A stretch of 64,000 bases of DNA from a phage. A model generated the notes under the pieces. That model did not search any database. It saw only the letters and a list, made by a program, of their open reading frames with translations, and was not told the origin of the DNA. Position numbers and translations under genes: made by a program. This document shows, piece by piece, positions 8,777 through 30,335 of this stretch (the first letter of the stretch is position 1; every line of letters starts with the position of its first letter). Location: the sequence record PX393110.1. The stretch is one strand, 5' to 3'.

Positions 8777-10291
8777 TTATTTGTTATTCAGATTTAACCC
8801 AGCAATGATCATCTCGGAACGGGTTCCGAAGCTAACATCACCATTAAGCACTGCCGAGGTAAGACGCTGCTTAACGTTACCGTGGCCAATAGACTTCAAC
8901 CAGCTAGGGTGCTTCGTAGGGATAGCATCAGCTTTAATCGCCAGTACCTCACCCTTATCACCCATGCTGCGAACACCGATTCGTCCGTTATTCATCTTAA
9001 CCAGATCAGTACAACCACGAGCAATGATCTCATGGTGAATCGATGCGATACCGATACCGATGTCGTCGAAGATGTGCTTAAGCTGGATTGATGCTAGCTC
9101 TGCACCCTTAATAGCCGACCCAGCTTCGTGAGCAAGATCCGTGATGCACTTATACTTAGACTCGGATACCTGAGCTACCGCAGTACCTCTACCACCTACC
9201 GTCTTCAGGATGTCAGCCAAGGTATTACTTACCGAAGTACCGAATTCCTTAAGAGTAGTCGAGCCAGATGTATGCTTACCACGAAGACCAGCCTGGGTAG
9301 ATGGTTCGGAGATATGCTGCGCCGACGCCGTTCCAATACCGAAGTTAATCGGGAAGAAGTTAGCTGGTTTAGCCGGATCCATACCGCAGCAATGCTGACA
9401 TACCCCACCCTTAGTCGATTCACAGGTAATCGGGCTAAGGACTTTAACGTTACCCTCTTCATCAGCTAACTGATCAACATTCTCCTTAGTGATCAGTACT
9501 CGATCATTAGTGAATCGATACAGTGCCGATTTCTTAGGTAGGGTAATCACTTCCTTAGTTCCGCAATCTTCTTCCACAATAGACAGCTCACGAGAGCAGT
9601 TAACCAGCTGACGAGCGAACCAGCCAGTCGCAGGTACCAGGAAGAAGTTACCAGCCAGACCCTTACGAGCAGGTCCGCAGGTGTTGAAGTAGTTGATAGG
9701 AGACAACCCGGAGCTTAAGTTCTCCATAATCGGCATCGGCATGATCTTACCAGTCATACCTACCAGAAGACCCTTAGCTACTACCATCGAGCGAACCTGG
9801 GGAGGAGATACACGAGCGCCAGATACACCCATCGCATACAGAGGATTATGACGGTCTACCTCTTTGAACCAGCGATCAGTACATTCGTTGATCACCTTAT
9901 CAGCAGCCACCAGACGATCCTCGTACTTCATCTTACCGAGTTCCTGGGTCATTGATGGGAAGTCGATACCGAAGTCAAACTTAGTGTCGTCATAGCACAA
10001 GCTAAGTCCAGACATAGTTGCTTTATGGAACCCGAACTGCTGCAACTTATGGAGTCTACGCCCAGCTACTTCCGGAGTGTAGTTATTATTGATGTGAGAG
10101 ACGATCTTCGCAGATTCCTTCTTATCGATTTCTTTTTCTGGAAGATAGCCACTGATTTCCCAAATAAACAGTCGACCGATAGTAGTTTCTTTAGGACCAT
10201 CAGAGAAGTAAAAACGCACCGGAGTGGTGTAGGTTGCTTCTTTCATATCAATAAGACGGTGTAATTCATTCAAGGACTTTGATACGATCAT
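8777..10291 (-). CDS. multisubunit RNA polymerase beta-prime subunit, C-terminal fragment
   Basis: GIGTASAQHISEPSTQAGLRGKHTSG matches the beta-prime region GxxAAQSIGEPGTQLTMRTFHxGG. Confidence 0.65.
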   Translation of the reverse strand: MIVSKSLNELHRLIDMKEATYTTPVRFYFSDGPKETTIGRLFIWEISGYLPEKEIDKKESAKIVSHINNNYTPEVAGRRLHKLQQFGFHKATMSGLSLCYDDTKFDFGIDFPSMTQELGKMKYEDRLVAADKVINECTDRWFKEVDRHNPLYAMGVSGARVSPPQVRSMVVAKGLLVGMTGKIMPMPIMENLSSGLSPINYFNTCGPARKGLAGNFFLVPATGWFARQLVNCSRELSIVEEDCGTKEVITLPKKSALYRFTNDRVLITKENVDQLADEEGNVKVLSPITCESTKGGVCQHCCGMDPAKPANFFPINFGIGTASAQHISEPSTQAGLRGKHTSGSTTLKEFGTSVSNTLADILKTVGGRGTAVAQVSESKYKCITDLAHEAGSAIKGAELASIQLKHIFDDIGIGIASIHHEIIARGCTDLVKMNNGRIGVRSMGDKGEVLAIKADAIPTKHPSWLKSIGHGNVKQRLTSAVLNGDVSFGTRSEMIIAGLNLNNK

Positions 10292-14184: not shown

Positions 14185-14263
14185 AATATTCTCCGCTTAG
14201 AATAAAATGGGCTAGATGGTGAAGCGGCACCATCAGGGGAGCTACCCTTTTCGCCCAAACACT

Positions 14264-14296: not shown

Positions 14297-14566
14297 TTAT
14301 CGAATTAGCCCATACTTCCATGCCATTACATGCGCAGGTTCGTTATGAGCGAAGAATGCGGTACCCTTCTTGGTAGTAAGCACCAAACACGGCTTATTTC
14401 CCATCATATCAGCCATGCTAGCTACCACAGTCTTCTCAGACCCAGGCTTAGCCGGATCAATGCCCATAGCTATTTTATGAGCAGTTGTCTTACCAGGACG
14501 TCTCGGATTAGATACCAAGACTTTAGGGGAGGTCTTTCGGCCACCCTTACGCTGCTTTCTCGCCAT
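14297..14566 (-). CDS. hypothetical basic protein
   Basis: 89 aa ORF with Lys/Arg-rich N-terminus. Confidence 0.3.
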   Translation of the reverse strand: MARKQRKGGRKTSPKVLVSNPRRPGKTTAHKIAMGIDPAKPGSEKTVVASMADMMGNKPCLVLTTKKGTAFFAHNEPAHVMAWKYGLIR

Positions 14567-17500
14567 GTTTAGGCTCCAGAGTTATTTTAGCCTTAAGCTC
14601 GATATACTTACATCCCCAGCCTGTACCGTCGGAACGAATACCGGATTTGGAGTTGAAGCTGTTAGCTATAGAGTTTAACTTCTCCTTCTCCTTAAGGATC
14701 TCTACGTATGGAGTCCACTGGCTATACTGATCGAGAGCTTCCAGTAGTTTCTCCAATGCAGACTCACGACCCTCAACGATCAGCCATCCGGAACCATCTT
14801 CGTTAACTCCATAGTCATCCAGACCCATCAAGGAACCGCCCCGAGCACCGAATTCGATATCAGTGCGCATAGGCATATCCCAGAGTTCACGAATAGCCCC
14901 CTCCATATTCTCACGAGTCTTCTGGAACACCTTGAACATCTCGTTGATTCCGGATGTGGTATCCAAGGAGTCGTGGACCATGATGTGAGTCTCGGCCTCC
15001 ATATTGGACTGCTTAAAGTCCTCATCCAGGAAGTACATACCTGCGCCAGCAACCATCGACGAAGTATTCTGGATAGGATAGTTCACCGAAGTAGAGTTAA
15101 CGTTGGTACCTTCCAGGTTGATACGGTTACCGAAGTAACCATAAGCATACCCAGTCTCGAAGCCATTTTTCTTGGTAGCATCAATCCATGCCTTAAGACC
15201 GGTAAACTTACCGAATACCGTGTCCATCAGATTCTGAGCACGCTCCATATCACCACCAGTAGCAACCATCGCTACCGATTCAAGGCTAGACTGGTATACT
15301 AATGCGAAGTTAATCGCCTTACCACCCTTACGCTCAACATCAGTTACTTCAGGTTCAGACTTCTGGTATGCAATCGAGCTAACGAATCGGTGCATGTCGC
15401 CACCAGATAAGAATACGTTCTTCATATCCGAGTCATCGGCGAACACGCTAACCATCACCAGCTCAGCCTGGCTAAAGTCCTGGTGGTACCACAGGCCACC
15501 CTCCGGCTTAGATACCCAGATGTTACGCAGAGTACTGTCGCCAGGAACGTTATGAATACCTGCCTGCCAACGAGATGTAATCGCAGCCAACGAGTTAAAG
15601 TCCGGAGTCATGATGTAGCAATCTTCACCATCCTGCAACTTCGGATTATCCCAGTCGTACTTACGAACTCGCAGCGGAGGTAAACCATCACGTAGTTTAG
15701 CTGCCCATACCGTCTGGCGTCCTACCTTACCATCAATGTATGTAGCAATCTGTTTGTAGTGACGCTTATACATCTTCAGGTCAACCATCATACGGAACGA
15801 TGTATTCCAGGTAGACTCGTCATCCGGATTAACTCCCAACATCAACTGGTGAATAGCCAATTGGGCATCGAGAACATCCGCTTTAAACTTATTCGTGAAT
15901 CGCTCTTCATAAGCTTCCAGACCGTCCTGGACGCACATGGCAATTAACTCCCGAACATGCTTAGACTCAGCAGTATCCCCGAATTGGATGATCCTGGTTA
16001 AGATCTCATCTACCGGAAACTCCCGGAAGAATTCCCTCTCCAGCTTCTCCGAATCCTTAGGCACGAACCCCTTAGAGATCGCCAGCAGGGTTTTATCCCA
16101 GTAGTCATGCACCTTAAGCTGGTCCATTACAGACCATAGCATGGTACACATCTCTACTTCATCAGTAAGATAGGCTTTCCAGAACTTCTCCTTATTAGCC
16201 TTATCGTTACTGTTAGGGTTGAAGAATCCTGACAGATCAGCAATCTTCCCAGCCAGAGTAGTAACCATCTTACGGCGCTCTTGTCCACCAGGAGTGTACC
16301 ATACGTTCTCGTACGGCAACTCTCGATAGATAAAGTCGCGAGCTGTAAGCATCTGGTCAGGAGGTAACTTAAGGTTAGGGATTAGGCTAACCAAGTGCTC
16401 CGACATTTTGCTCATGCAATAGTCGTACTCTTTAGTCGCCTCTTCGTCATCCCAACGAATACCGTTAGCTTCGAAGATAGATGCCAGGTATGGATGTAAC
16501 ATATATACGTTATACCCATCCTTATACTTATCGTAAAACATCTCGTGGATGAACACACCGTACGCGGAGTCATAGCAGCAGTACTCCCCAAGAATCTCAC
16601 GAGGAATCGCACCCCACTCATATGGGTAGAACGATGCCAAGTAAATAATCTCGGATTCTTCGAGCTCCTCCGATAGTTCGGCTATCTTATCCAGCATAAA
16701 CTGGTTGAAGTTAACAGGAATACGATTCTTAGCCGCCTTAGTCGGAGCCGCTTCCACGAGTTTCTCGTACTCAGCTTTAAGAGCTAGGTGATGCTCAATA
16801 TTGAACTCGCCAGACTGAATCTCTGCAATCTGCTCAGGAGTACAACGCTTCTTCATATCCTTGAAGATAGCTGCCCAACGATCCTTCCATTCGTGTACCG
16901 ACCCTTCCCAGAAGTCTGCATGTAAATAACGACGAGCAGCATCTTTCAACGAGCTCCGTTCGCCATGCATAGTCAGAGTTACAATCGCATCGATAAACTT
17001 GCAGAATACGTCTAACCAATGCCACGTAGTCTTAATCTCGTACGGACAGTTAAACGCCACGATCTGCTCCTGGAACTTAACCAGGAAGTCACGCAAGAAT
17101 CCTAGCTGTTCCGGAGTCTCTTTACCGGTAACATTGTACCATACGGACTTGGCATCCTTATCACCAATCTTCTTAGCGATACTGAATCCAGTGATCCGGA
17201 AGTCTACCGAGAATAAATCAGCTGCGTTAGACTCATAGTCGAGGCCGAGATAGCCTTTGTACCCAGACCACATAATGTCGTTAAGGAACTCCTGGAGGCC
17301 GTTCCAGTCGACGAATTCCCACTCTACATTATATTCGGATTCTTTCTGGCCGAATACCAGAAACTTAAAACGATCAATCCACGAATCAAGTATACCAGGA
17401 TCAGAATCCAGATTACGTTCAACCTGGGCATGGTGCATGACTACAGCTAGCTTAAAGTTATACTCCGGTATGTTACCCAGAGGGAACTTCAGTAGCTTAT

Positions 17501-17834
17501 CCAGAGTCTTCTTATGCGTATAGCCTGGGGATATAGTCGCAGCTAATTGGCGACCCAAAGTCATTACATGCTTAACGCCATGCTTTTCACACAGCTCGTA
17601 AAAGTTGAGACCATCCTTATCACGGATTTCGTCTATGTTAGACAGCTCTTCGAAAGTACCATCTCTGTTGATCTCTATCAGACCAACTTTGTTATGTACC
17701 CCAGCTGTAATTAGCGCTACATCAAGAGTTTGGCCAGCATTCGATGCAGCAAACGGAGGAGCATCATTATTCTCGCGCTCGTCCCCGATAATGACATAGT
17801 CTACTTCGCCAACTAAATTGTGATTCAGAAACAT
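14547..17834 (-). CDS. family A DNA polymerase
   Basis: motif A DFSQAEL (cf. DYSQIELR), motif B KGGKAINFALVYQ (cf. RRxAKxxNFGxxYG), motif C VHDS (cf. VHDE); start refined to MFLNH at 17834. Confidence 0.8.
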   Translation of the reverse strand: MFLNHNLVGEVDYVIIGDERENNDAPPFAASNAGQTLDVALITAGVHNKVGLIEINRDGTFEELSNIDEIRDKDGLNFYELCEKHGVKHVMTLGRQLAATISPGYTHKKTLDKLLKFPLGNIPEYNFKLAVVMHHAQVERNLDSDPGILDSWIDRFKFLVFGQKESEYNVEWEFVDWNGLQEFLNDIMWSGYKGYLGLDYESNAADLFSVDFRITGFSIAKKIGDKDAKSVWYNVTGKETPEQLGFLRDFLVKFQEQIVAFNCPYEIKTTWHWLDVFCKFIDAIVTLTMHGERSSLKDAARRYLHADFWEGSVHEWKDRWAAIFKDMKKRCTPEQIAEIQSGEFNIEHHLALKAEYEKLVEAAPTKAAKNRIPVNFNQFMLDKIAELSEELEESEIIYLASFYPYEWGAIPREILGEYCCYDSAYGVFIHEMFYDKYKDGYNVYMLHPYLASIFEANGIRWDDEEATKEYDYCMSKMSEHLVSLIPNLKLPPDQMLTARDFIYRELPYENVWYTPGGQERRKMVTTLAGKIADLSGFFNPNSNDKANKEKFWKAYLTDEVEMCTMLWSVMDQLKVHDYWDKTLLAISKGFVPKDSEKLEREFFREFPVDEILTRIIQFGDTAESKHVRELIAMCVQDGLEAYEERFTNKFKADVLDAQLAIHQLMLGVNPDDESTWNTSFRMMVDLKMYKRHYKQIATYIDGKVGRQTVWAAKLRDGLPPLRVRKYDWDNPKLQDGEDCYIMTPDFNSLAAITSRWQAGIHNVPGDSTLRNIWVSKPEGGLWYHQDFSQAELVMVSVFADDSDMKNVFLSGGDMHRFVSSIAYQKSEPEVTDVERKGGKAINFALVYQSSLESVAMVATGGDMERAQNLMDTVFGKFTGLKAWIDATKKNGFETGYAYGYFGNRINLEGTNVNSTSVNYPIQNTSSMVAGAGMYFLDEDFKQSNMEAETHIMVHDSLDTTSGINEMFKVFQKTRENMEGAIRELWDMPMRTDIEFGARGGSLMGLDDYGVNEDGSGWLIVEGRESALEKLLEALDQYSQWTPYVEILKEKEKLNSIANSFNSKSGIRSDGTGWGCKYIELKAKITLEPKHGEKAA

Positions 17835-17864
17835 GTTTAACTCCAAAAATAAACCTCCGCCAAT

Positions 17865-19541: not shown

Positions 19542-20497
19542 ATTAAGTTCTCTCTTCTGTCTAATACGGACTGGATGAACTCATCAGTACCATTCTGCAG
19601 TTTCCGTATTAGTAATTCCTCAGGATCCTCACCATCGCTGTAGACTACTCGCAGTTGACGAATACTCTTCACCTTCTGTCTTACGCTATTGCGCAGTTCA
19701 AAAGATAAATCCGTACTGTCAAGAAATATCTGACCTTCTTCCGGGAAGAACTGACTCATCATCCTGGCCTGGGTATCGGTGAGGAAAGATCCCTGGACAG
19801 CTAATGGGTTATCGTAGCCTAACAGCAACATTGCGAAAGCATCAAACATACCCTCGCATAAGCTGAACTTAGTCATACCTCCGTATAGACTAGTCTTCAG
19901 AGCACGATTCGGACTATAGATATACTTATCCCCAGGAGGAATATGGTATTTCCTTTTACCTATCGGCTCGTACAGACGCATCGTATAAGATATGATCTTA
20001 CCCTTAAAATACATCGGAGCTGCCACACCTACTCCCTTAAGTTCGCGGATCTGGAAATAATCTTCCATACCCTGTAGGAGCGGGTTGCGGTTAGCCAAAT
20101 ACTCTTTACAGAAATCAGAAGGAGGATCAAACATCCTCTCATACTGAATCTCTGGCACCGAAGATAAACTCCGGACTACCTGCTTATCAGAATGAGCTAT
20201 CCACCCACGGATAGTTAGCTCTAATTCTAACTCTTCCTTACTCTTATTCGAGAAAGGTATGAACTTACAATGGCAACGATGGCATATTCCAGTCTGCTTA
20301 TTGTAGTTCCAGTAAAATGTCCACTTAGAGTTCGGTTCCCCCATAAGTTCACAGGTGGGACACAGTCGGAGCTCCTCCCCCTTATGTTCGTTAGCTATCT
20401 GGACATTACCAGGATACTTATCTGCTTCGAACATGTAAACTCTGGGAGTAACCCTAACCAAGTATTCATTTATACGAGTTAGAGACTCAATTTCCAT
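19505..20497 (-). CDS. DNA primase (zinc-ribbon plus TOPRIM)
   Basis: CPTCE...CHRCHC zinc ribbon; TOPRIM-like LCEGMFDAF. Confidence 0.6.
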   Translation of the reverse strand: MEIESLTRINEYLVRVTPRVYMFEADKYPGNVQIANEHKGEELRLCPTCELMGEPNSKWTFYWNYNKQTGICHRCHCKFIPFSNKSKEELELELTIRGWIAHSDKQVVRSLSSVPEIQYERMFDPPSDFCKEYLANRNPLLQGMEDYFQIRELKGVGVAAPMYFKGKIISYTMRLYEPIGKRKYHIPPGDKYIYSPNRALKTSLYGGMTKFSLCEGMFDAFAMLLLGYDNPLAVQGSFLTDTQARMMSQFFPEEGQIFLDSTDLSFELRNSVRQKVKSIRQLRVVYSDGEDPEELLIRKLQNGTDEFIQSVLDRRENLICNMMSKESSIA

Positions 20498-20813
20498 AGA
20501 CTAAACTCTGACCCGCATGGATGCGTACTGCATGGTTCTTGTTAGAGTTAGTCAGACGAATCCACTTACCTTCGTCTGTAGAGAATACCTGAGCAGTTAA
20601 GCCCAGGTAAGATACAGAAAGATTAGAGATAGAGTCGACAGTTACCGTACTATCTACCGGAAACTCTACCGATGAGCCAGCTCCAACAATGTAGCCACTC
20701 TTACGCAGCTTCATTGGAGCAATACGACTACTGTGCTGATCGTCAGCACCAATTGTCCGAGCGAACGAGCTCTCAACGTAAACAGTTTCAGGAATATTAA
20801 TCTGCATTGCCAA
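20487..20813 (-). CDS. hypothetical protein
   Basis: 108 aa ORF. Confidence 0.3.
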   Translation of the reverse strand: MAMQINIPETVYVESSFARTIGADDQHSSRIAPMKLRKSGYIVGAGSSVEFPVDSTVTVDSISNLSVSYLGLTAQVFSTDEGKWIRLTNSNKNHAVRIHAGQSLVYGN

Positions 20814-21396
20814 TAGTCTCTTTAACCAGGTGCTCTATTGAACTACCATGTGCCATATGGAGAAGAGACTGGAGAGTACCCATCCATACATCATCACTCA
20901 CTTCGTCTTTGTACTTATTGAAGCAGGTACTGAAGATGTTGCGGCAGTTCTCCAGCTCGCTTTCGCCAAAGAAGATGTTACCCATGCTGAACTCAGTCAT
21001 GATCTCACGAGATACCGCAATAGCATCTGCAACTTTACAGATGAACTTAGCTTCGGCAGATGCAGGAGTGCGGAAAGTAGGAAGTACCTCTTCCCAGATT
21101 TCCTGCTCAACTTTATTCAGAGTCTCTTTTAACTCTGGGAAGCGAGCCTTAGCAGTGTAGGGGACATCACCTGTAAAGATCTCTGGAATGTCGTGAACCA
21201 ACGAGTACTGATTTACTTCCAGACCCTGCTCAGCAGTTAAAAATCCATCCATCACCAGTTTCTGAACAATCAGAGTAGAGTAGTAAGTAACTTCGAAGCT
21301 ATGCTCCGAGATAGTAGAGCGATGAGACAGTACTTGCTTACCTGCGAAACGATTCACGTTATTGGTACACACTGGTACCTTAAAAAGATCTTTCAT
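20797..21396 (-). CDS. HD-domain phosphohydrolase, YfbR-like 5'-deoxynucleotidase (putative)
   Basis: H...HD...D pattern: EHSFEVTYYS ... LVHDIPEIFTGDVP. Confidence 0.55.
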   Translation of the reverse strand: MKDLFKVPVCTNNVNRFAGKQVLSHRSTISEHSFEVTYYSTLIVQKLVMDGFLTAEQGLEVNQYSLVHDIPEIFTGDVPYTAKARFPELKETLNKVEQEIWEEVLPTFRTPASAEAKFICKVADAIAVSREIMTEFSMGNIFFGESELENCRNIFSTCFNKYKDEVSDDVWMGTLQSLLHMAHGSSIEHLVKETIGNAD

Positions 21397-21448
21397 GTAA
21401 TTTCTCCTAAGTTACAAAAATAAAGGTATGGAAGTTGCCTCCCACACC

Positions 21449-21479
21449 TTAACAGCCTTTCGAGCCCTAAAAAGAGCGG
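21449..21479 (-). promoter_or_regulatory. class-1 conserved motif, copy 3
   Basis: TTAACAGCCTTTCGAGCCCTAAAAAGAGCGG. Confidence 0.45.
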
Positions 21480-22553
21480 TTATTCCAGAATAAACGGAGA
21501 CTTATCCCCGAGGCGGTTCGCGACCCATTTCACGAATGGTGAATTAACCAGATGCTCGCACTGGATAGACATGTGAGCTCCAGTAGTCTTACATAGATAA
21601 TGAGCGCCTGCTAACCACATCATCACATCCAGAGTTGATCCTGGTTGGAACTCTCGACCAACATCTTCCATTACGTATTCTAGAATACTGTGATCGCTAT
21701 TATAACGAGAAGCAGCATCTTCAAGAGTAGCGATGTAATGCTGGAAGTAGGTACGGATCTTATACCAGGAATTAAGTGATCCGAGATCAATCGTAGTTAC
21801 CGGAGCTTCATTAATGTCGTCAACATAAGCTCGGATATTACTTACCTGCTTCTTGATGTTCGACACTTCCGGATACCAGTGGAGATCATCCGTCATCACC
21901 ACATAGTTGCCCATATCTACTTTGAGCATAGTTGCGATGATTTCCTGGATGATCGTGAACTCCACCAGATTAACGTTAGTCAATCCCCAGATTAGATCAT
22001 TACTACGGTTGAATACCGTGCAGTCCAGACCACCATTACGGTACTTAAACGATAGAGCAATGTTGCAGATCATATCTGCGGTATTGATGCTGCCAATGCT
22101 GTTTACCAGACCTACATCAGAATCACGGCTGGGATCGTGAATAGTAGCCACGCACTTACGGTTACCCAGGTCAGAACGGAGGCGGTCTGTTACAGTCTGG
22201 AGTTGATCGTAGTTATACAGACGCTCACCGTAAGCACCACGCCAGGTAACCATATCATCGCTAAACATCTTAGCGCGAGGAACCATAATCGACATCCAGT
22301 TATCGATTGCATAGCCACCAGACAGTACCCACAATACTTCCCCCATAATTCCGAGGATATTGTCTTTACGTTCTGGATGAGCCATCCAACGATTAATCGG
22401 ATTACTTAACTCAACTACAGCATGACCGATGGATACTACCGCCGAAGAGTTAACAGAAGTTCTGGACTTCTGCAACTCACCAGCCTTATCCATAGTATTG
22501 ATGCTGTTAACCAGGATTTCAGTATTACTGTTACCGCGAATTACCGAGATCAT
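21480..22553 (-). CDS. thymidylate synthase-family enzyme (ThyA homolog; possible pyrimidine C5 hydroxymethyltransferase)
   Basis: ILGIMGEVLWVLSGG (cf. ELLWFLxGxTN), WRGAYGERLY (cf. PVYGxQWR), ADMICNIALSFKY (catalytic Cys region, cf. ALPPCH..QFYV), LDCTVFNRSNDLIWGLTNVNLVEF (cf. LSCQLYQRSxDxxLGxPFNIASYALL). Confidence 0.6.
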   Translation of the reverse strand: MISVIRGNSNTEILVNSINTMDKAGELQKSRTSVNSSAVVSIGHAVVELSNPINRWMAHPERKDNILGIMGEVLWVLSGGYAIDNWMSIMVPRAKMFSDDMVTWRGAYGERLYNYDQLQTVTDRLRSDLGNRKCVATIHDPSRDSDVGLVNSIGSINTADMICNIALSFKYRNGGLDCTVFNRSNDLIWGLTNVNLVEFTIIQEIIATMLKVDMGNYVVMTDDLHWYPEVSNIKKQVSNIRAYVDDINEAPVTTIDLGSLNSWYKIRTYFQHYIATLEDAASRYNSDHSILEYVMEDVGREFQPGSTLDVMMWLAGAHYLCKTTGAHMSIQCEHLVNSPFVKWVANRLGDKSPFILE

Positions 22554-23272
22554 TTAGAGTCCTTACGCACTGAATCAATAGACTTAACTGCAGAGGACAG
22601 TAACTCCAGACGGGCCTCCTGAGGGATCATACCAGATGGCTCGTTCAGGATCATAATACCTTTACCAGTATTAGTAAAACGAGCTGTGATTGATCCAGGA
22701 TACACCGGATGATTCAGAGTTACAGAATTACACAACGCAGCACCGAATCGCTCCTCGTAGGCACGCATAGTTACCTTAAGGAGAGTAGAACTGACTGCTA
22801 CAGAGTATTCAGGATCAACAACACGGAAGTTATTGTCCTCAATACTCTTATCCTTCGTATTGAAGAACAGAGTCATGTTATAATAATCAATAGACTCGTT
22901 ACTGAGACGTAATGCCTCATCACGAGCTTCCTGGCTGGCAAACATACTGTTATGCAGCAGGAAGTAAACGTACGAATCGAATACCGCACGATCACTGACG
23001 ATCAACTCGCCACGATTGTAGGCATCCTTGAACATCTGAGTTCGCTGACGAATAAGACGCAGCTGGAACTCTACCGCTTCCATAGGATCTTCTACAGCTA
23101 AGCGCAGAATATCCATATGGGATGTTACTCCCAGAGGAAGATGGTCACGAGTCTGTACTGCACGGAAGGTACATTCGGTTGATTCTTCCCAACCTTTAGC
23201 CAGGGTAGATTTACCGGTACCCTGCGCACCAGACATAATTACACTGTAGCCTGGGATACTATAGTCTCTCAT
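22550..23272 (-). CDS. P-loop nucleotide/nucleoside kinase
   Basis: Walker A MSGAQGTGKSTLA; start refined to MRDYS (ATG at 23272) with GGAGAGAA upstream. Confidence 0.55.
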   Translation of the reverse strand: MRDYSIPGYSVIMSGAQGTGKSTLAKGWEESTECTFRAVQTRDHLPLGVTSHMDILRLAVEDPMEAVEFQLRLIRQRTQMFKDAYNRGELIVSDRAVFDSYVYFLLHNSMFASQEARDEALRLSNESIDYYNMTLFFNTKDKSIEDNNFRVVDPEYSVAVSSTLLKVTMRAYEERFGAALCNSVTLNHPVYPGSITARFTNTGKGIMILNEPSGMIPQEARLELLSSAVKSIDSVRKDSK

Positions 23273-23304
23273 TATTCTCTCCAATTAAGAATCTTTCCCA
23301 CATT

Positions 23305-23335
23305 TTAACAGCCTTTCAAGACCCTAAAAGAGCGG
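23305..23335 (-). promoter_or_regulatory. class-1 conserved motif, copy 4
   Basis: TTAACAGCCTTTCAAGACCCTAAAAGAGCGG. Confidence 0.45.
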
Positions 23336-23361: not shown

Positions 23362-24333
23362 CTAGCTAAACTTATACCAGCGAGGTCTCATACGGATCTC
23401 GTGATTCAGTTTATGTAGTTTCGAGAATTCGCAGAATGAGTTGGTGAACATCTGGCGAGTATAGAATCGCTCATCCTCTGGCATGAAGTGGAACCATTTC
23501 TCCGGTTCCCATGAATACCCGAAATGTGCACATATCTCTTTGATGTTCTGATACCACCATTCCACGAATACCTGATAACCACAGGGAGGATTCTGGTCAT
23601 TAATCATGTACCATACCCCATCCTGAGTCCCAGGTCCACATACGATAGCGTCATTATCTGTATACGCAGTCTCTTTAGAGTAGGACATAGTTGCCCAGCA
23701 TTGATATGCCATGAACGGACCTAATCCAGATACCTGTAACAGATGCTCGATAGCCTCGGTAGCGAACGGAGACTTCCATGCCCATAAGATAGGATCACTG
23801 TAGGTCTTCACCAGATAGGCTCTGGCAGCTACACTGTACTTAATATCCTCTGGACATACTTCATTAGCCATCTTAACTGCTGTGCTAAGGAAGTAGGCAT
23901 TTGATTGCTGTGGAGCGGTGAACGGAGGACCATCCTCATAACGACGTAGCTCTTCGCGACCCATGTTATGTATGTCGTCATAGCTCATCTCATAAAGAGG
24001 AAGGACTCTGCGGAAGCGATCCATATATGAATCACCACGGTTTATCATCTGGAAGAGTACTACATTAAGTGCTTTACTCTCCCAGCTTAAAGAATCGTTC
24101 TCCAGAATGTTCTTAATAGCCCACACTGTTTCACGATCGTGCTTACGGAACACGTTAGTGAATTTGAACTTACTAATCCACTTATGTTCCGTCCACGGAG
24201 GAGGCAGCTTAAGCACCTCCTTCTTATAATAAACCTCTGTACGTTCACGGTTATACTCCACATACTCCCGTAACTCCTCAGGATTTATCATCCCAAGGAG
24301 TCCTTCGTAATGCAGACCTAACGGTGTTGACAT
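23362..24333 (-). CDS. hypothetical protein (323 aa), translationally coupled to upstream GT
   Basis: start ATG overlaps upstream stop (TAATG at 24331-24335); Trp/aromatic-rich, no recognisable motif. Confidence 0.45.
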   Translation of the reverse strand: MSTPLGLHYEGLLGMINPEELREYVEYNRERTEVYYKKEVLKLPPPWTEHKWISKFKFTNVFRKHDRETVWAIKNILENDSLSWESKALNVVLFQMINRGDSYMDRFRRVLPLYEMSYDDIHNMGREELRRYEDGPPFTAPQQSNAYFLSTAVKMANEVCPEDIKYSVAARAYLVKTYSDPILWAWKSPFATEAIEHLLQVSGLGPFMAYQCWATMSYSKETAYTDNDAIVCGPGTQDGVWYMINDQNPPCGYQVFVEWWYQNIKEICAHFGYSWEPEKWFHFMPEDERFYTRQMFTNSFCEFSKLHKLNHEIRMRPRWYKFS

Positions 24334-25412
24334 TAAAGAATACCTTCTTTGGTAAAGTAGTCGATTACTTCATCCTGAAGTTCTTGTGCGTAATCCTTGC
24401 GCAGATACAGATTCTCATACTGATGTTTCAGCAGAGCATCACGATCTTTCAGTTTCTCTGCAATCTCCGCATTACTGGAGACGATCAGAGGAGCCAGCAG
24501 CTCTTCGGGGACGCCGCTCCGGATTATTGTTCCGGCAGCATCTTTATCCACCAACATCAGAGTACCAGAGCTCAGGTATTCATAATAACGGTTAGGTGGG
24601 CTGGTATAGAACGAGTTACTAGAGTTCCAGTCTTCAATAAGCAGTACCGCTGCGTATTTAGCCACTTCATCCAGCATCTCTGACAGCTTAAACTTAGGCA
24701 GCCAGTTAATAGGAGCAGCAGGCCCCAGCCACTTACGTTCTTTAGGATCCAGCTCTTCCCAGTTTTCCTGCTCGTAGCCGTCAAATCCAGCAAGACCACC
24801 AGTATGTTTAGCGATAGACATCTGAGCTTTGTAGCTAGGCACCGACATAAACAGTTCCAGACCATCCTGCTGGGAGAAGTACTGAGTGAACTTATGGAAG
24901 CGACCTTCACGAGCAGCACCGTAATACAGCAGGCTATTGTCTGGTTTATCAGATGAGCCGTAGCGAGGCTTACGACCAGGAACGTAGGTAAGACGGTTCC
25001 AGTTAATGTGGTGATAGTTCTCTTCGCTAGGGGAGTACTGATTACCCCAGGAAGTACGCTCGAATGCTGCTACTACTTTAAATGTCGTAGCTGCTGTGAT
25101 GTGTCGCCACTGCGGACCCTGGATACGCATACGTGATGAATAATCTTGACCAATCCAGTAAAACTTAGCTCCGAGGTCCGCCTGGTCTACCCAGAATTTA
25201 TACATCTCATCGCGGAACTTACAGAAGGTAGGAACACCATTGACGGCGATGATCACGTCATATTTGGTGCCATCTTCCATAGCCTTAACAAACTTAGGAG
25301 TATCATCCAGCAAGTCCGCCTGAAGTCCGTAGGCTAACCAGGATGCCAGAGTGTTACTGGCGATGATGGATTTATCGCTGCATGGCGAAAAGTTAGTTAC
25401 TGCAATTTTCAT
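24333..25412 (-). CDS. GT-B fold glycosyltransferase, phage DNA beta-glucosyltransferase-like (putative)
   Basis: MKIAVTNF... N-terminus, LLYYGAAREGRFHKFTQYFSQQDG and NRYYEYLSSGTLMLVD segments resemble T4 beta-glucosyltransferase as recalled from memory; not searched. Confidence 0.4.
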   Translation of the reverse strand: MKIAVTNFSPCSDKSIIASNTLASWLAYGLQADLLDDTPKFVKAMEDGTKYDVIIAVNGVPTFCKFRDEMYKFWVDQADLGAKFYWIGQDYSSRMRIQGPQWRHITAATTFKVVAAFERTSWGNQYSPSEENYHHINWNRLTYVPGRKPRYGSSDKPDNSLLYYGAAREGRFHKFTQYFSQQDGLELFMSVPSYKAQMSIAKHTGGLAGFDGYEQENWEELDPKERKWLGPAAPINWLPKFKLSEMLDEVAKYAAVLLIEDWNSSNSFYTSPPNRYYEYLSSGTLMLVDKDAAGTIIRSGVPEELLAPLIVSSNAEIAEKLKDRDALLKHQYENLYLRKDYAQELQDEVIDYFTKEGIL

Positions 25413-25440
25413 ATTTAATTTCTCCGTAGGCTGTCACAAT

Positions 25441-25470
25441 GTAACAGCCTTTTAGCTCATCAAAGAAGCG
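25441..25470 (-). promoter_or_regulatory. class-1 conserved motif, copy 5 (variant)
   Basis: GTAACAGCCTTTTAGCTCATCAAAGAAGCG. Confidence 0.35.
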
Positions 25471-26494
25471 AATTAGCTGATGCCCAACTCAGCCACTTAT
25501 CATTGAGATCAGTTAAGTAGGAATAGTCTTTGTTTAATCCGAATACCGTACGGTTAGTTCCATCGAACTTCATTACCCCAGCACCAGGAGCTCGGATAAT
25601 TGCATCTTCGGTAGCCGTACAATACTCTTTCAAGTATTCCTGGATGTTGGGACGAATACGACGGAACGAGCTATCTGCAGAGTCATAGTGGAACATATCT
25701 GCACAATGCCACTGTACGTAGGACTTATCTGGACGGCTAAGCAGCTCATTACGAGTTACCATATCTTTCGGAGAGTAGCCTAGCTTAGCTACGGTGACTT
25801 CGTGAATACCACCGCCATTAGAAGAGGTGTCCATTAACCAGTTCTCATCCCAGTAGAACGAGCTACCAGTACCGGTTACCTGGCCCACTTTCCATCCCAT
25901 CGCCATACCTTTAAACAACAGGTAGCAATCCTCACCTACAGTGAGTTGCTGGAAGGTCTTATCGAACAGCCAGAACATCTTCTCGCTAGTCTTGACCATA
26001 ATACCCAGGTCAGTAGCCGGAGCAGTGTTATTATGGGACTGACGATCGCAGAGTTCAACAATCTTGTAGTTACGGTTCTTGAAGCTACGGACGAACGCCA
26101 TCTCAAACTCAGATCCCTCGAAGTCGATAATGGACCGATCCAGATGGAAGATATCGTCGGCGAACCAGACATCATCATCCACGAAGTAGCAGATGTCTGG
26201 GCACCAGTCCTGCTTCTCCATTACAATCCATGCTTTATCCAGAGCATGGGCACGGATTTCTCCGATTACCGGATTTTCGTACTTAGGGCTATGACAGAAA
26301 TTAAATTGCTCATCCCCACCAAACTGCTCTTCCAGAATTGCCTTATCTTCTTCGGAGGCATCCTGAATAAAGTAGAAGAAGCGATACTCAATAGAGTCGT
26401 CAGTCTTTTTAGCATCTTTGAACGACTGAATCTGACGGAGTACCGACTTCAGACGATGATAGGTTGGGATGATAAAAGCTACTTTGGTGGTCAT
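25460..26494 (-). CDS. family-2-like (GT-A fold) glycosyltransferase
   Basis: VAFIIPTYHR N-terminus and DxD motif YFVDDDVWF. Confidence 0.5.
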   Translation of the reverse strand: MTTKVAFIIPTYHRLKSVLRQIQSFKDAKKTDDSIEYRFFYFIQDASEEDKAILEEQFGGDEQFNFCHSPKYENPVIGEIRAHALDKAWIVMEKQDWCPDICYFVDDDVWFADDIFHLDRSIIDFEGSEFEMAFVRSFKNRNYKIVELCDRQSHNNTAPATDLGIMVKTSEKMFWLFDKTFQQLTVGEDCYLLFKGMAMGWKVGQVTGTGSSFYWDENWLMDTSSNGGGIHEVTVAKLGYSPKDMVTRNELLSRPDKSYVQWHCADMFHYDSADSSFRRIRPNIQEYLKEYCTATEDAIIRAPGAGVMKFDGTNRTVFGLNKDYSYLTDLNDKWLSWASANSLL

Positions 26495-26500
26495 AATTAT

Positions 26501-27112
26501 TTATCCAATTTGACGAACTAAGCGAAACCCTTCGGCGTACGGCCACTGGGCGGAATATCCACGTAAGGTGGCTAGGGCTAAGATACTCTGGGTATCTCGG
26601 TCTGACTTAATCTGGGAGTCGAATCGTCCCATAGCCTGGCACTTACACTCAATATCGTCCTTATTCAGACGCTCGAAGTAATTAGGTTCCATCTGACCGA
26701 ACTGGGTCAGGGACTCGGCATACTCATATTCCAGGATAAGCCAGTTATACGCTCGGAGAGCTACACGAGCAGCATGATTAACTAGTTGATGGTCCTGGTG
26801 TAGGCTACTGAACGGAATATAGACTACATCCGGCCTGATTTTAGCAACATAGTCCGCAATATCCTTAGCCAATTGCGGAATATCCTTCTGAGTCATACCA
26901 TCGCCTGTGGAGGCATCGTTACGCTCCAGGCAATGTACTTCTTTGATATTCGGATAGACACCGAATGCTGCTTCGGCTTCGCCACGACGGGTCTCGTCCG
27001 GAGCAGTTACTTCGAGGATGAAGAATTGGTCATCGCGGAATTTGCTCATAATACCTCCGCAACCCAGAATCTCATCATCGTGATGTGGGCTGATAATCAG
27101 TCGTGACTTCAT
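26501..27112 (-). CDS. PIG-L/LmbE-family N-acetylglucosaminyl deacetylase
   Basis: LIISPHHDDEILGCGG (family hallmark AHPDDE) and second His-rich motif SSLHQDHQLVNH. Confidence 0.6.
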   Translation of the reverse strand: MKSRLIISPHHDDEILGCGGIMSKFRDDQFFILEVTAPDETRRGEAEAAFGVYPNIKEVHCLERNDASTGDGMTQKDIPQLAKDIADYVAKIRPDVVYIPFSSLHQDHQLVNHAARVALRAYNWLILEYEYAESLTQFGQMEPNYFERLNKDDIECKCQAMGRFDSQIKSDRDTQSILALATLRGYSAQWPYAEGFRLVRQIG

Positions 27113-27179: not shown

Positions 27180-27210
27180 TTAACAGCCTTTTAGGTCATC
27201 AAACAGGCGG
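27180..27210 (-). promoter_or_regulatory. class-1 conserved motif, copy 6
   Basis: TTAACAGCCTTTTAGGTCATCAAACAGGCGG; overlaps the 3' end of the transporter gene. Confidence 0.4.
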
Positions 27211-28581
27211 AGTTTCCTTAGCCAAGAATACTTTAGGTACAAAGATCTTGAGGAACCCGAATAGAATACACAATACCCCAATCAGTACCGGAACAGCCGA
27301 TACAGCTACCAGAGTCTTCGTTACAGTTACTACGTCGCCACCTGCCCAGTTAAGTGCAGCAGCAACTACACCCATGCTTACAATCCAGAATACACGAGTT
27401 CTAGGAGCGGTCATGGACTCTACCGTAATACCTGCTGAGTCATGACCTGTAATAAAGAACAGGATCACAGACACGAGGGTAATTACCGAGAATATCCATC
27501 CGCCTGGGAAATTAGCCAGAAGCTGGAAGATATCCTGAGCACCATGTTGTAGACCAGCTACACCGAATACGGTAAACCAGACGTTACTGATGATGGTAGG
27601 GAACAGTACACATCCGAGGATCAGTTCGCGAATAGTACGGCCGTAAGAGATACGTGCCACAAACGCTCCGACGAATAATGCCCAACCTACCCAGGCTGCA
27701 TAGTAAGCATAAGGCCAGCTAGCCAGCCATTGCTTCTCTTCAGCAGTACTGCCGATGTTTACTGACATAGGAATAATCTGGAGCAGATAGCTACCAGAAT
27801 AGGTGATGGTCTTCCAGAGGTATTCGAAGAATGTACCACTTACAGCAACGAATGCCATAATAGATAGAGCTACGATTACATTATATCTGGATAACCACTT
27901 AACCCCACGATCGACACCAGTTACGGCACTAAGTACAGTACCCAGAGTCAGGAGCGCGATAATGGTGTAAGGACCAACATCCACTCCCAGGAACTCTTTA
28001 AATCCGGAACTGATCGGGCCTACTGCGTAGACGAACGACAGGGTTAAGCCTATGATGGTAGAGAAGAGTAAGCTTATCGTATTAAGGTTATTCAGAGCTC
28101 GGGACTTGAATAACTGATTAAGCGGACGGTCTTCACCACGTACATGCAGTAAGTACCCGAATGCCACCCCTACGACTGCATAAACTGCCCATGCGTTAAG
28201 TCCCCAGTCAAAGAAGGTAGTTACCATATTCTGACGTTCGGACATACCCTCCTGCTGATGGTACATAGGTTCGAGTACACCATAATAAATCATGGATACA
28301 CCCATACCGGTACTAAACATCATGGAGTAATAGGTAAAGCGATTATATTTCGGAGCACCTTTACCCAGCTTAATGTTACCATGCTTGCTGAATACAAAGA
28401 ATGCCAGGAACGCTAGGAAGATCAGCGAAGACCAGGTAAATATGAATCCATACTGAGATATGAATACAGACTTACTCCAGTCCATTACAGCACCAAACTG
28501 GGTGGGAGCTAACATAATGGCGAGTATGATACCCACCGTTACTAGCACCGTCCCCCAGGTAACTACCTTTGAATCTGACAT
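27199..28581 (-). CDS. BCCT-family (betaine/carnitine/choline-type) secondary transporter
   Basis: multi-TM protein; FSKHGNIKLGKGAPKYNRFTYYSMMFSTGMGVSMIYYGVLEP (cf. FSRYGNIRLG...WFAMLFxAGMGIGLxFxGVxEP) and VGAFVARISYGRTIREL (cf. GMFLARISRGRTIREF). Confidence 0.7.
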   Translation of the reverse strand: MSDSKVVTWGTVLVTVGIILAIMLAPTQFGAVMDWSKSVFISQYGFIFTWSSLIFLAFLAFFVFSKHGNIKLGKGAPKYNRFTYYSMMFSTGMGVSMIYYGVLEPMYHQQEGMSERQNMVTTFFDWGLNAWAVYAVVGVAFGYLLHVRGEDRPLNQLFKSRALNNLNTISLLFSTIIGLTLSFVYAVGPISSGFKEFLGVDVGPYTIIALLTLGTVLSAVTGVDRGVKWLSRYNVIVALSIMAFVAVSGTFFEYLWKTITYSGSYLLQIIPMSVNIGSTAEEKQWLASWPYAYYAAWVGWALFVGAFVARISYGRTIRELILGCVLFPTIISNVWFTVFGVAGLQHGAQDIFQLLANFPGGWIFSVITLVSVILFFITGHDSAGITVESMTAPRTRVFWIVSMGVVAAALNWAGGDVVTVTKTLVAVSAVPVLIGVLCILFGFLKIFVPKVFLAKETPPV

Positions 28582-28584
28582 TGA

Positions 28585-29493
28585 TTATTCCTCAATTACG
28601 CCCTTAGCGATTAACTGGCGACGGACGTATGCGTAGCCAGCAGGTGAAGTAGCGAGGACGATGTCCGCACTACGGAAGTTGGTTTCGATATAGAAGCACT
28701 CCTGAAGATCCCGCGTACAGAAGAGCTCAGTGCTCATCATACCCTCGCGTACGTTACATGCGTCTGCAACGAATTGCGCAACATCTTCGAAGTGGTCTAC
28801 CGAATGACTATAGCCGAATCCACGGGCATCAGTAGATATAACGTAGTTATGGCAGTACGGAGTGAAGTCAGTATCTTCGTAGGATTTACCCTGGATAGTG
28901 AAAATATCTGCATAATCCTTGAACCCGCTCGGGCTAACCAGAAGATCCCAGGCAACTACCATACCGTCGATAACATCTGCTTGAAGTACCAGAGAAGTAG
29001 TATATTCGTCCGGCGCCTTATCACAGACCAAAATTGGGGAGTCCCCCAGAAGGTCCGACATAGTGCCTGCACCCTTGCCCCCGTGAACACGATCACGGCG
29101 TACAAACGCCTCCTGAGGCTTCTGGTACAGTCTAAACGACGGTACAATCAGCGAATCAGGCATAGTTCCCAGATTAGCTTCGGAGCGAAGGCAGGATAAT
29201 TGGTCAGCTTTAGACCACGTACTTTCGATAGCGTGCAGATCGTTACCGATTTTGGTATAGATGTAGCTTTCCGGATTGCGGTACTTACCCTGATTCAGCT
29301 CTTCGATAACCGAGTCGAAATAAGGAAGTCGTACTGATCCCTCACGAGGAGCAGTTAACGCTACTGAACCATGCTTGGTATGATCCTGATCAACTACCAT
29401 AACCTGGTCCAGACTTACACCCATCTTAAGAATCTGGGATAGTGTAGCTGCTGTGTGGTTAGTGCAGCCAATCATCAAATCTAACTTCTTCAT
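28585..29493 (-). CDS. hypothetical enzyme, possibly ATP-grasp-like ligase
   Basis: glycine-rich HGGKGAG and C-terminal FYIETNFRSAD resembling the ATP-grasp E-x-N-x-R motif; weak. Confidence 0.3.
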   Translation of the reverse strand: MKKLDLMIGCTNHTAATLSQILKMGVSLDQVMVVDQDHTKHGSVALTAPREGSVRLPYFDSVIEELNQGKYRNPESYIYTKIGNDLHAIESTWSKADQLSCLRSEANLGTMPDSLIVPSFRLYQKPQEAFVRRDRVHGGKGAGTMSDLLGDSPILVCDKAPDEYTTSLVLQADVIDGMVVAWDLLVSPSGFKDYADIFTIQGKSYEDTDFTPYCHNYVISTDARGFGYSHSVDHFEDVAQFVADACNVREGMMSTELFCTRDLQECFYIETNFRSADIVLATSPAGYAYVRRQLIAKGVIEE

Positions 29494-29520
29494 TTTAATT
29501 CCTCAGTTAACTTGTACAAC

Positions 29521-29550
29521 CTAACAGCCTTTCGAACCCTAAAAAGAGCG
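29521..29550 (-). promoter_or_regulatory. class-1 conserved motif, copy 7 (variant)
   Basis: CTAACAGCCTTTCGAACCCTAAAAAGAGCG; about 27 nt upstream of ATG with GAGGA in between. Confidence 0.4.
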
Positions 29551-29594
29551 AAATAATAGATATCTAGCCACCTCGTAAGATGGCTATGTATATA

Positions 29595-30335
29595 TTACTT
29601 TAATTCGGAGAGATCTGCTATCTTCACCTTAGCTGTTACATCCCAGATTCCTTCACCAAATCCGGTATCTTCCAGCAGCTTAGGCACTTCACGTTTCTGT
29701 ACCTTAGACTGCTCGTACTTAAGCAGAGGAATATTACCGGTCTTATCCGATTGATCCCACAGATAAGTAGCAGCACCAATGTTATCGAACAGTGCGAGAT
29801 CTGGATTAAACTGGGTAAGGAGTCGGCAGTCCCAGTGAGATTTATGTTCCTCGAAAGGATTAGTCTCCGTACCACGCTGACGATACTCGTAGTTAGGAGT
29901 ACCGATCACGATTTTAGCCTTAGACTGGAATAGCTTAGACAACACCATAAGCCCATCTTCGCTATCCAGATGCTCCAACACATCTAGCCAGATAATAGTG
30001 CCGAATTTATCCAGCTCTTCAATAGGAAGATCTTTCAGCAGTTCAACGATATTGCAGATGTAGATATCGCTATATACATTTACACTGCCTTTGATGTAGT
30101 CTTCGCAGATGTCCAGACCTGTGATCTGACCTTCGAATCCTGCGTTACGGAGAGCTAGACCGATCTCTCCACGACCTAATCCCATATCCAGGATTGGCCC
30201 GGAGATAATTTCGTTACGGAGCATCCATTGGAGAAAGTGCTTCTGGACTAAGTAGGAGGTACCTCCGTTGCCCAGTGAAGCCTTCGTGACCTTAGTACCA
30301 GGAACGAAGTTACACTCGATATGTTTACCAAACAT
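29595..30335 (-). CDS. class I SAM-dependent methyltransferase (small-molecule type)
   Basis: motif I ILDMGLGRGEIG; post-I acidic GLDICEDY; TIIWLDVLEHL. Confidence 0.55.
   Translation of the reverse strand: MFGKHIECNFVPGTKVTKASLGNGGTSYLVQKHFLQWMLRNEIISGPILDMGLGRGEIGLALRNAGFEGQITGLDICEDYIKGSVNVYSDIYICNIVELLKDLPIEELDKFGTIIWLDVLEHLDSEDGLMVLSKLFQSKAKIVIGTPNYEYRQRGTETNPFEEHKSHWDCRLLTQFNPDLALFDNIGAATYLWDQSDKTGNIPLLKYEQSKVQKREVPKLLEDTGFGEGIWDVTAKVKIADLSELK

Follow-up and report, generated by a model that had tools for sequence, protein, structure and literature searches.

A phage kinase-ThyA-HD gene triad predicted to supply 5-hydroxymethyldeoxyuridine nucleotides for thymine replacement

Organization of the locus

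The phage DNA of sequence record PX393110.1 was analysed over a stretch of 64,000 nucleotides (nt), referred to here as the window, in which all genes from ~4 kb to ~50 kb are carried by the minus strand. Its near relatives are Escherichia phage vB_EcoM_IME392 (IME392 below) and phage EP_H11, with ~96% identity to the window across the region discussed. In this region there are three consecutive minus-strand open reading frames (ORFs), found at exactly the coordinates given by an initial annotation that had described an HD nucleotidase, a homolog of the thymidylate synthase ThyA and a P-loop kinase. All three family assignments hold. The genes are the following, with protein lengths in amino acids (aa):

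20797..21396, minus strand: HD-domain phosphohydrolase, YfbR-like, 199 aa (Pfam, PHROG and PDB sequence matches); predicted dT-nucleotide (dTMP or dTTP) hydrolase
21480..22553, minus strand: ThyA-superfamily enzyme, 357 aa (PF00303, PHROG 3676, tblastn and residue mapping); predicted dUMP hydroxymethylase
22550..23272, minus strand: P-loop kinase, 240 aa from the ATG at 23272, with a deoxynucleoside kinase (dNK)/thymidylate-kinase-like fold and an extra C-terminal beta-alpha subdomain; predicted kinase of 5-hydroxymethyldeoxyuridine monophosphate (5-hmdUMP)

With a probability of about 65%, these genes would form a pre-replicative nucleotide-pool module, and the phage would use 5-hydroxymethyluracil in place of thymine, with further modification of this base. 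The evidence for each gene and the other explanations that it allows are considered below.

The ThyA homolog

The product of the middle gene belongs to the thymidylate synthase superfamily. It matches PF00303 (Thymidylat_synt) with E 4.7e-12 (46 bits, Pfam cut-off 24.3) and PHROG 3676 'thymidylate synthase' with E 7e-71, and it is annotated as 'putative thymidylate synthase' in IME392 and EP_H11. Both the label and the score above the Pfam threshold would suit an ordinary thymidylate synthase. In that case, or if it were a cytosine-specific hydroxymethylase, the genes would be routine auxiliaries unrelated to DNA modification. This is highly improbable. The protein fails all of the NCBIfam thymidylate synthase equivalogs by a wide margin (29-44 bits against cut-offs of 108-405), and its nearest relatives are hydroxymethylases of phages that use 5-hydroxymethyldeoxyuridine (5-hmdU). 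By tblastn, the closest annotated ones come from ViI-like Ackermannviridae, where they are labelled 'thymidylate synthase' (41% identity across residues 9-240), followed by PhiW-14 gp230, annotated as a deoxyuridylate hydroxymethyltransferase, and by genes of SPO1-like Bacillus phages and M6/PaMx11-like Pseudomonas phages. The DNA of ViI-like, PhiW-14, SPO1-like and M6/PaMx11-like phages is known to contain 5-hmdU or modifications built on it. By these similarities, the window protein is placed in the phage dUMP hydroxymethylase clade. Such a role is not new, since a 2025 paper already lists the homologs of IME392 and EP_H11 (AXY86077 and WBU87640), together with the dCTP deaminases of these phages, as needed for 5-hmdUMP synthesis, the IME392 protein being the presumed 5-hmdUMP synthase.

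The active site was mapped with a MAFFT alignment that combined the protein with eleven homologs of the hydroxymethylase type, E. coli ThyA (its sequence verified through the canonical residue numbers) and T4 gp42. An alignment to thymidylate synthases in the PDB agrees independently. The catalytic cysteine, whose context had been reported as kept, is indeed present as C163 (DMIC163N), opposite E. coli C146. Likewise, R183/S184/D186 correspond to E. coli R166/S167/D169, H225/Y227 to H207/Y209, E72 to E58 and Y108 to Y94. The initial annotation had also proposed that a TNVN motif, by virtue of its asparagine, suggests a uracil substrate, while warning that the hand alignment was ambiguous. The present alignment resolves this ambiguity. 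TNVN occupies residues 192-195 and, given a one-residue loop insertion in the family, its second Asn (N195) aligns with E. coli N177. This Asn is invariant in the dUMP-type homologs aligned (14/14); the first one (N193) varies and may be N, S or G. The cytidylate enzyme MilA, in an alignment to solved structures, has Asp at the position of N195, and Asp is also found in this column in one divergent homolog (P0013). For T4 gp42, D179 is one column off in MAFFT, and a hand comparison (VFGFRND vs FLGLPFN) puts it at the position of N195. Because N195 aligns with N177 and is invariant among dUMP-type homologs, the alignment points to a uracil nucleotide as the substrate; the presence of Asn rather than Asp also speaks against a cytosine-specific enzyme.

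Several elements of canonical thymidylate synthases are missing. The tryptophans that close the site over the folate (W80/W83) are absent, the region reading FSDD in the MAFFT alignment, and a long helical extension stands where the C-terminal closing segment would be. Furthermore, the residue after the catalytic Cys is Asn, not His. All these differences argue against an ordinary thymidylate synthase. The equivalent of E. coli R21 is also lacking, both here and in the ViI-like enzyme (SVNSS vs SRNG). The loss of W80/W83 and of the closing segment would fit hydration of the reaction intermediate rather than hydride transfer, and the predicted product carries a hydroxymethyl rather than a methyl group.

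The protein is longer than ThyA, and the extra length had initially been assigned to ~60 N-terminal residues. These are not there. Pfam aligns residues 21-239 with profile positions 10-224, residue 75 is opposite residue 71 of M. tuberculosis ThyA in the alignment to solved thymidylate synthases, and MAFFT pairs M1 with E. coli M1 and E72 with E58, with nine residues inserted. The N-terminus is within ~9-14 residues of that of ThyA. An AlphaFold model of low confidence (pLDDT 57.5, 8 sequences), used for fold and secondary structure only, also has the N-terminal layout of ThyA, with a strand (residues 3-7) and a helix (10-23) together with three strands. The extension is instead C-terminal, with 132 residues after H225 where E. 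coli has 57, and the helical segment, ~75 residues longer than in E. coli, spans roughly residues 240-357. It is common to all dUMP hydroxymethylase-type homologs and to MilA. In Foldseek, many thymidylate synthases match the model at probability 1.0, and the best match is MilA (E 8e-13), because it carries a similar C-terminal extension.

The P-loop kinase and its transcription unit

The kinase gene starts at the ATG at 23272, which is preceded by a GGAGAG ribosome-binding site; a TTG at 23284 falls within that site. At its other end, the TGA stop codon overlaps the ATG of the ThyA homolog (ATGA), and the two genes are translationally coupled. The unit that they form is flanked by two promoter-like elements, the second of which is followed upstream by a gene with an HMUDK_hel domain:

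21440..21479, minus strand: promoter-like element, a copy of a repeated motif, between the ThyA stop and the HD start
23296..23335, minus strand: promoter-like element preceding the kinase gene, identical to the repeated motif
23362..24333, minus strand: HMUDK_hel protein, 323 aa, outside the three-gene module (PF18723, E 4.8e-35)

The first element, CCGCTCTTTTT-N6-TCGAAAGGCTGTTAAGGTGT, lies directly after the stop codon of the ThyA homolog and 43 nt upstream of the HD start, and the second sits between the HMUDK_hel gene and the kinase-ThyA unit. Both belong to a conserved ~38-nt element, CCGCTCTTTT-N6-TC(G/C)AAAGGCTGTTAARRTGT, of which the window has 11 copies vs 0 expected by chance (minus strand, at 14255, 21440, 23296, 27171, 30353, 33703, 39148, 44355, 48224, 48282 and 48889). 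The motif itself takes up ~22 nt in each copy, with ~18 conserved nt further upstream. Each of the 11 precedes a gene start by a few tens of nt, on the coding strand. The element is probably a phage-specific promoter, as the phage encodes its own RNA polymerase beta' subunit. This multisubunit-type subunit is split, as in some large phages, with Rpb1 (beta') domains 1-2 and 3-5 on two separate minus-strand genes (5330-6898 and 8777-10291). Around the module, the elements delimit four units: a methyltransferase-like gene, a 302-aa gene and a betaine/carnitine/choline transporter (BCCT) gene; PIG-L, 344-aa, 359-aa and HMUDK_hel genes; the kinase and the ThyA homolog; and the HD gene with a 108-aa ORF, primase and helicase.

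The kinase matches Pfam AAA_28 (E 2e-9) and the PHROG thymidylate kinase (E 1e-11). Its matches in NCBIfam are weak and generic, and the profile of its family found only P-loop matches to AAA ATPases among PDB sequences. A structure model of high confidence matches deoxynucleoside and thymidylate kinases, so that the modelled fold is that of these small-molecule kinases, with an extra C-terminal subdomain. An exhaustive profile search collected 668 relatives, 37 of them full-length with E < 1e-30. The P-loop, a basic residue at position 46, Q74, a DR motif (D98-R99) and a lid arginine (Arg154) are conserved in the family.

The fold leaves some choice of substrate. Deoxynucleoside kinases and a ribosylnicotinamide kinase are among the top structural matches; Pfam dNK is found in 16/57 sampled family members (AAA_28 in 57/57); some relatives are labelled deoxyadenosine/deoxycytidine kinase by their source, and one is followed by a dCMP deaminase gene. 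Thus, the enzyme might be a deoxynucleoside kinase that phosphorylates a 5'-OH and feeds the dUMP pool by salvage of deoxycytidine or deoxyuridine. Nevertheless, this is quite unlikely. Position 46 is Arg or Lys in most aligned members (R46 in the window protein), which by motif reading we take to be the Arg of the TRE(P) motif of thymidylate kinases and not the catalytic Glu that presumably occupies this position in deoxynucleoside kinases. In addition, such an activity would be expected to cycle futilely with the adjoining 5'-nucleotidase-type HD enzyme, and the tight translational coupling suggests action on the product of the hydroxymethylase. We infer that the kinase acts on 5-hmdUMP, a step for which published pathway schemes assume host kinases.

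A different possibility is raised by the HMUDK_hel gene. Because this gene adjoins the kinase gene and a preprint reports that a DNA kinase for 5-hmdU (5-HMUDK) 'could not be detected' in RP13, EP_H11 and IME392, the kinase could be the missing DNA kinase. It would then be a non-orthologous 5-HMUDK that phosphorylates the hydroxymethyl group, on DNA or on a nucleotide, and activates it for the neighbouring HMUDK_hel protein. The direct adjacency to HMUDK_hel is also seen in metagenomic contigs L013 and L019, and it mirrors that of 5-HMUDK to HMUDK_hel in PaMx11 (gp49-gp50) and of 5-HMUDK to the hydroxymethylase in Ag3. Furthermore, phosphate has been reported in the modifications of related phages, and a canonical 5-HMUDK was found neither in the window, where three such proteins had no tblastn match, nor by hmmsearch of all six-frame ORFs of the whole IME392 genome.

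Even so, this explanation is unlikely. Homology to 5-HMUDK is limited to the 23 P-loop columns returned by profile-profile alignment with hhalign; in BLASTP, only the P-loop is shared with PhiW-14 gp37, and the P-loop is likewise all that the kinase has in common with Ag3 orf67, PaMx11 gp49 and M6 gp54. As all four approaches (BLASTP, tblastn, profile-profile and hmmsearch) gave the P-loop at most, the kinase was rejected as a homolog of canonical 5-HMUDKs. Nor was a relationship found to Ag3 orf65, which lies downstream of a ViI-type hydroxymethylase and weakly resembles P-loop kinase genes. The kinase family is acidic to neutral (isoelectric points 5.3-7.0), whereas the four DNA kinases compared (PhiW-14 gp37, Ag3 orf67, PaMx11 gp49 and M6 gp54) are basic (8.3-9.1). 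The kinase also occurs without HMUDK_hel, in Acinetobacter phage Ab1-TPeters and in contigs L014, L017, L024 and L026. Moreover, a search of all six-frame ORFs of IME392 with phmmer did not find a clade-2 amino-acid:DNA transferase (ADDT), the user of phosphorylated 5-hmdU. Finally, a promoter-like element separates the kinase from HMUDK_hel, and the coupling is to the ThyA homolog instead. The ATGA overlap, the promoter-like element before HMUDK_hel and the gene neighbourhoods associate the kinase with nucleotide metabolism and the hydroxymethylase rather than with DNA-level enzymes.

The HD phosphohydrolase

The HD protein is YfbR-like (Pfam PF12917, E 1.7e-14, 54 bits, cut-off 25.9), with further matches to Pfam HD_3 (E 2.6e-6) and PHROG 7076 (E 6e-19). 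Among PDB sequences it matches DatZ (2e-5, over a partial region), Lin2634 (4.5e-4) and YfbR (0.02). The metal ligands and catalytic residues of YfbR are all kept: in the alignment, H32, H68, D69 and D124 correspond to YfbR H33, H68, D69 and D137, and E72, D77 and R16 to E72, D77 and R18. The protein fails the test for YfbR orthologs (NCBIfam NF003009), with 27 bits against a cut-off of 122.

The probable substrate is suggested by related pathways. The depletion of dTTP is an established part of 5-hmdU pathways; for instance, SH-Ab 15599 has a dUTPase-fold dTTPase/dUTPase that spares 5-hmdUTP. In PaMx11, the HD protein gp52 comes directly after the ThyA homolog, and in ViI-like phages an NTP pyrophosphohydrolase is encoded near it. 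The IME392 genome encodes a separate dUTPase, as well as a dCTP deaminase. From the PaMx11, ViI-like and SH-Ab 15599 hydrolases and from the separate dUTPase of IME392, we infer that the HD enzyme removes dTMP or dTTP, both the base and the phosphate state being presumptive. A literature search on HD enzymes in 5-hmU phages returned nothing relevant. A DatZ-like dATPase role was also considered and set aside, given the link to a uracil-modifying enzyme and the lack of an adenylosuccinate-synthetase (PurZ-type) hit among the window ORFs scanned against Pfam.

Recurrence of the triad

The kinase-ThyA-HD triad is found in at least five phage lineages, namely IME392/EP_H11, Ab1-TPeters and metagenomic contigs L013, L019 and L028. 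In addition, L014 has the kinase-ThyA pair, while RP13 has an HD-kinase pair with the ThyA homolog nearby. The identity of the kinase across these cases ranges from 30% to 46%. HD homologs adjoin the kinase and/or the ThyA homolog in Ab1-TPeters, RP13, L013, L019 and L028. In Ab1-TPeters, which has the complete triad, tblastn across the whole genome found no HMUDK_hel, ADDT or 5-HMUDK. Thus, the triad recurs with or without DNA-level modification genes. More distant relatives of the kinase adjoin dCMP deaminase, PolA, RecA and SbcCD genes in phage replication modules, and no DNA-modification genes were found near them.

Proposed pathway

That the module acts at the nucleotide level, as had been proposed initially, is favoured by every computational test (the clade of the ThyA homolog, the fold of the kinase and the residues of the HD protein), the substrates of the HD enzyme and the kinase being predicted. 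The best reading is that it feeds downstream steps of thymidine hypermodification. In the predicted pathway, the dCTP deaminase of the phage would turn dCTP into dUTP, from which its dUTPase would make dUMP; in IME392, both enzymes are encoded elsewhere in the genome. Cys163 of the ThyA homolog would attack C6 of dUMP, with Asn195 reading the uracil face, and a methylene group would be taken from methylene-tetrahydrofolate. Because the enzyme is without the elements that close the site of thymidylate synthase for hydride transfer, the intermediate would be hydrated to give 5-hmdUMP. The kinase, made from the same mRNA as the ThyA homolog (ATGA overlap), would convert 5-hmdUMP to 5-hmdUDP, and the host nucleoside-diphosphate kinase (Ndk) would then produce 5-hmdUTP. 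This would be incorporated by the SP15-like PolA, whose gene is located a few genes downstream of the module (14547-17846). In parallel, the HD enzyme, whose gene heads the replication genes behind a promoter-like element of its own, would hydrolyse dTMP or dTTP, so that with dT nucleotides removed the phage polymerase would not incorporate thymine. The upstream island described below would serve the subsequent DNA-level steps.

Some observations weigh against this pathway. The activities of all three enzymes are predictions, drawn from the identities and family relationships of the genes, their folds and catalytic residues, and the synteny and recurrence of the triad. Because the ThyA model is of low confidence (pLDDT 57.5), the active site was mapped from sequence alignments. 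A T4 gp1-like dNMP kinase is encoded by Ab1-TPeters as well, so that a dedicated 5-hmdUMP kinase would be redundant there. As IME392 is without a canonical 5-HMUDK by hmmsearch of the whole genome, only this kinase or one not yet recognised could phosphorylate 5-hmdU in DNA. A further doubt comes from related phages, whose modifications are rich in sugar and contain phosphate. The best solved relative of the HD protein, DatZ, is a dATPase, and neither the base nor the choice between mono- and triphosphate can be read from the HD sequence. Finally, the C5 side chain of SP-15 is built at the nucleotide level. In SP-15 and YerA41, which have a related polymerase, the C5 side chain is larger than hydroxymethyl.

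The presumed upstream hypermodification island and other neighbours

The module forms the entry to a larger island presumed to serve thymidine hypermodification, a link that the initial annotation had missed. Upstream of the kinase, the island comprises the genes for HMUDK_hel, the 359-aa and 344-aa proteins, a PIG-L deacetylase, the BCCT transporter, the 302-aa protein and the methyltransferase-like protein. Its DNA-level part starts with the HMUDK_hel gene (23362-24333), which matches ViI orf00160 and PaMx11 gp50 by tblastn. The product is of the ViI gp160/PaMx11 gp50 type, a clade-1 aGPT-Pplase-like protein with a DNA-glycosylase fold, and it is the sole aGPT-Pplase-family gene found in the window and in the whole IME392 genome. 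In the papers examined, group-transfer activities are mapped to clade-2 enzymes, and the clade-1 or HMUDK_hel type is given no function. The presence of HMUDK_hel and of further candidate modification genes (the PIG-L deacetylase and a putative glycosyltransferase) next to the ThyA homolog is another argument against an ordinary thymidylate synthase.

The PIG-L-type deacetylase and the 344-aa and 359-aa proteins (24333-27112, minus strand) are conserved together, as the same group is present in L013 (5412-8984) and L014 (48-4955). Profile searches of the 344-aa and 359-aa families found no match in Pfam, PHROG or PDB sequences. By its motifs (VIPxYHR, Asp-rich motifs and GEDCYL), the 344-aa protein may be GT-A glycosyltransferase-like. 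This set of proteins suggests that an N-acetyl-sugar is added and then deacetylated.

A variable slot follows (28585-30335, minus strand), which in the window holds the methyltransferase-like protein and the 302-aa protein of unknown type alongside BCCT. In L013 (3211-5347) and L014 (1684-3909), the same slot encodes a phosphatidylserine-decarboxylase-like protein, an ATP-grasp ligase and a CxxCxxCC protein. This variation points to different final modifications on a shared scaffold. The BCCT gene (27199-28581, minus strand) is full-length (Pfam E 4e-92; BetP E 3e-48), and its product also resembles transporters of trimethylamine and choline. The transporter might bring a quaternary-amine building block into the cell; alternatively, the gene might be an auxiliary one with no connection to the island. 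A literature search found no paper linking BCCT transporters to phage DNA modification.

A more speculative proposal is that the kinase represents a new class of base-directed kinase, which phosphorylates the 5-hydroxymethyl group on the free nucleotide or on DNA. This is doubtful. If true, it would explain how 5-hmdU is activated in IME392/RP13-type phages that have neither a canonical 5-HMUDK nor a clade-2 transferase. It would also imply an unseen hypermodification, built by HMUDK_hel, the 344-aa protein, the PIG-L deacetylase, the methyltransferase-like protein and an imported BCCT substrate (choline/betaine).

On the other side of the module, the 3' end of the HD gene is overlapped by a small ORF:

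20487..20813, minus strand: small conserved ORF, 108 aa, overlapping the HD gene 3' end; position conserved in L013 and L019

The L013 counterpart has 31% identity (E 8e-12), and in L019 the position is occupied by a 116-aa ORF. The 108-aa ORF has no family match in Pfam or PHROG, and it may be an additional component of the module. Farther away, a single 921-aa ORF (34385-37150, minus strand) combines an N-terminal calcineurin-like phosphoesterase of the Mre11/SbcD type with a Rad50/SbcC ATPase with zinc hook, and appears to be a fused SbcCD-like nuclease.

Comparison with known systems

Thymine replacement allows phages to escape restriction enzymes and CRISPR, and it can make their DNA difficult to sequence. 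The module shows the probable route of 5-hmdUTP supply in the IME392/EP_H11/RP13-type group, and its kinase and HD hydrolase are candidates for the 'host kinases' and the dTTP-depletion steps that published schemes leave open. Both might also serve as parts in cells engineered to produce 5-hmdU DNA. The strategy is a known one, of the T4/SPO1 type, with a kinase and an HD enzyme from families not yet studied in this role. In effect, the points that are new are unsurprising: the roles assigned to the kinase and the HD enzyme, the repeated occurrence of the triad and the relocation of the extension to the C-terminus.

The logic is similar to that of T4, where a hydroxymethylase (gp42, for dCMP), a kinase (gp1, for dNMPs) and a hydrolase of canonical nucleotides (gp56, a dCTPase/dUTPase) work together. 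Nevertheless, the parts are different. The base is cytosine in T4 (Asp179) and would be uracil here (Asn195), the kinase is not gp1-like (IME392 has no gp1-like match), the hydrolase is an HD enzyme rather than one of dUTPase fold, and the C-terminus of the hydroxymethylase is 110 residues longer than that of T4. The closest resemblance is to the dUMP hydroxymethylases of ViI-like phages (orf66), PhiW-14 (gp230), SPO1-like phages, M6/PaMx11 (gp51) and SH-Ab 15599. These belong to the same clade with at most 41% identity, and share the catalytic Cys-Asn, the RSND motif, the invariant Asn of the WGxxxxN loop and the long C-terminal helical extension. By contrast with these enzymes, MilA (PDB 5jnh and 5b6d), a CMP hydroxymethylase that is the best solved match in both sequence and structure, has Asp instead of Asn at the specificity position, on the same plan of a ThyA core with a C-terminal helical extension.

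The HD protein is in the same Pfam family as the E. coli 5'-deoxynucleotidase YfbR and the dATP triphosphohydrolase DatZ of cyanophage S-2L, with the metal ligands, catalytic Glu and TGD motif kept. A role in adenine replacement is unlikely, because of the missing PurZ-type hit among the window ORFs scanned, and the expected substrate is a thymidine nucleotide.

As a whole cluster, the best comparison is that of PaMx11/M6 (gp46 AADT, gp49 5-HMUDK, gp50 HMUDK_hel, gp51 ThyA homolog and gp52 HD), where HMUDK_hel, a P-loop kinase, a ThyA homolog and a YfbR-like HD protein are neighbours as they are in the window. However, the two P-loop kinases are from unrelated families, and the window phage, judging by the IME392 search, is without a clade-2 amino-acid:DNA transferase. 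The accessory genes are also different: a PIG-L deacetylase, two families of unknown type (one of them putatively glycosyltransferase-like), BCCT and a methyltransferase-like protein in the window, and FAD, acetyltransferase, PLP or radical-SAM enzymes in PaMx11/M6. Since the only candidate kinase is nucleotide-kinase-like, the DNA-level chemistry of the IME392 group would differ from the model known from M6, ViI and PhiW-14.

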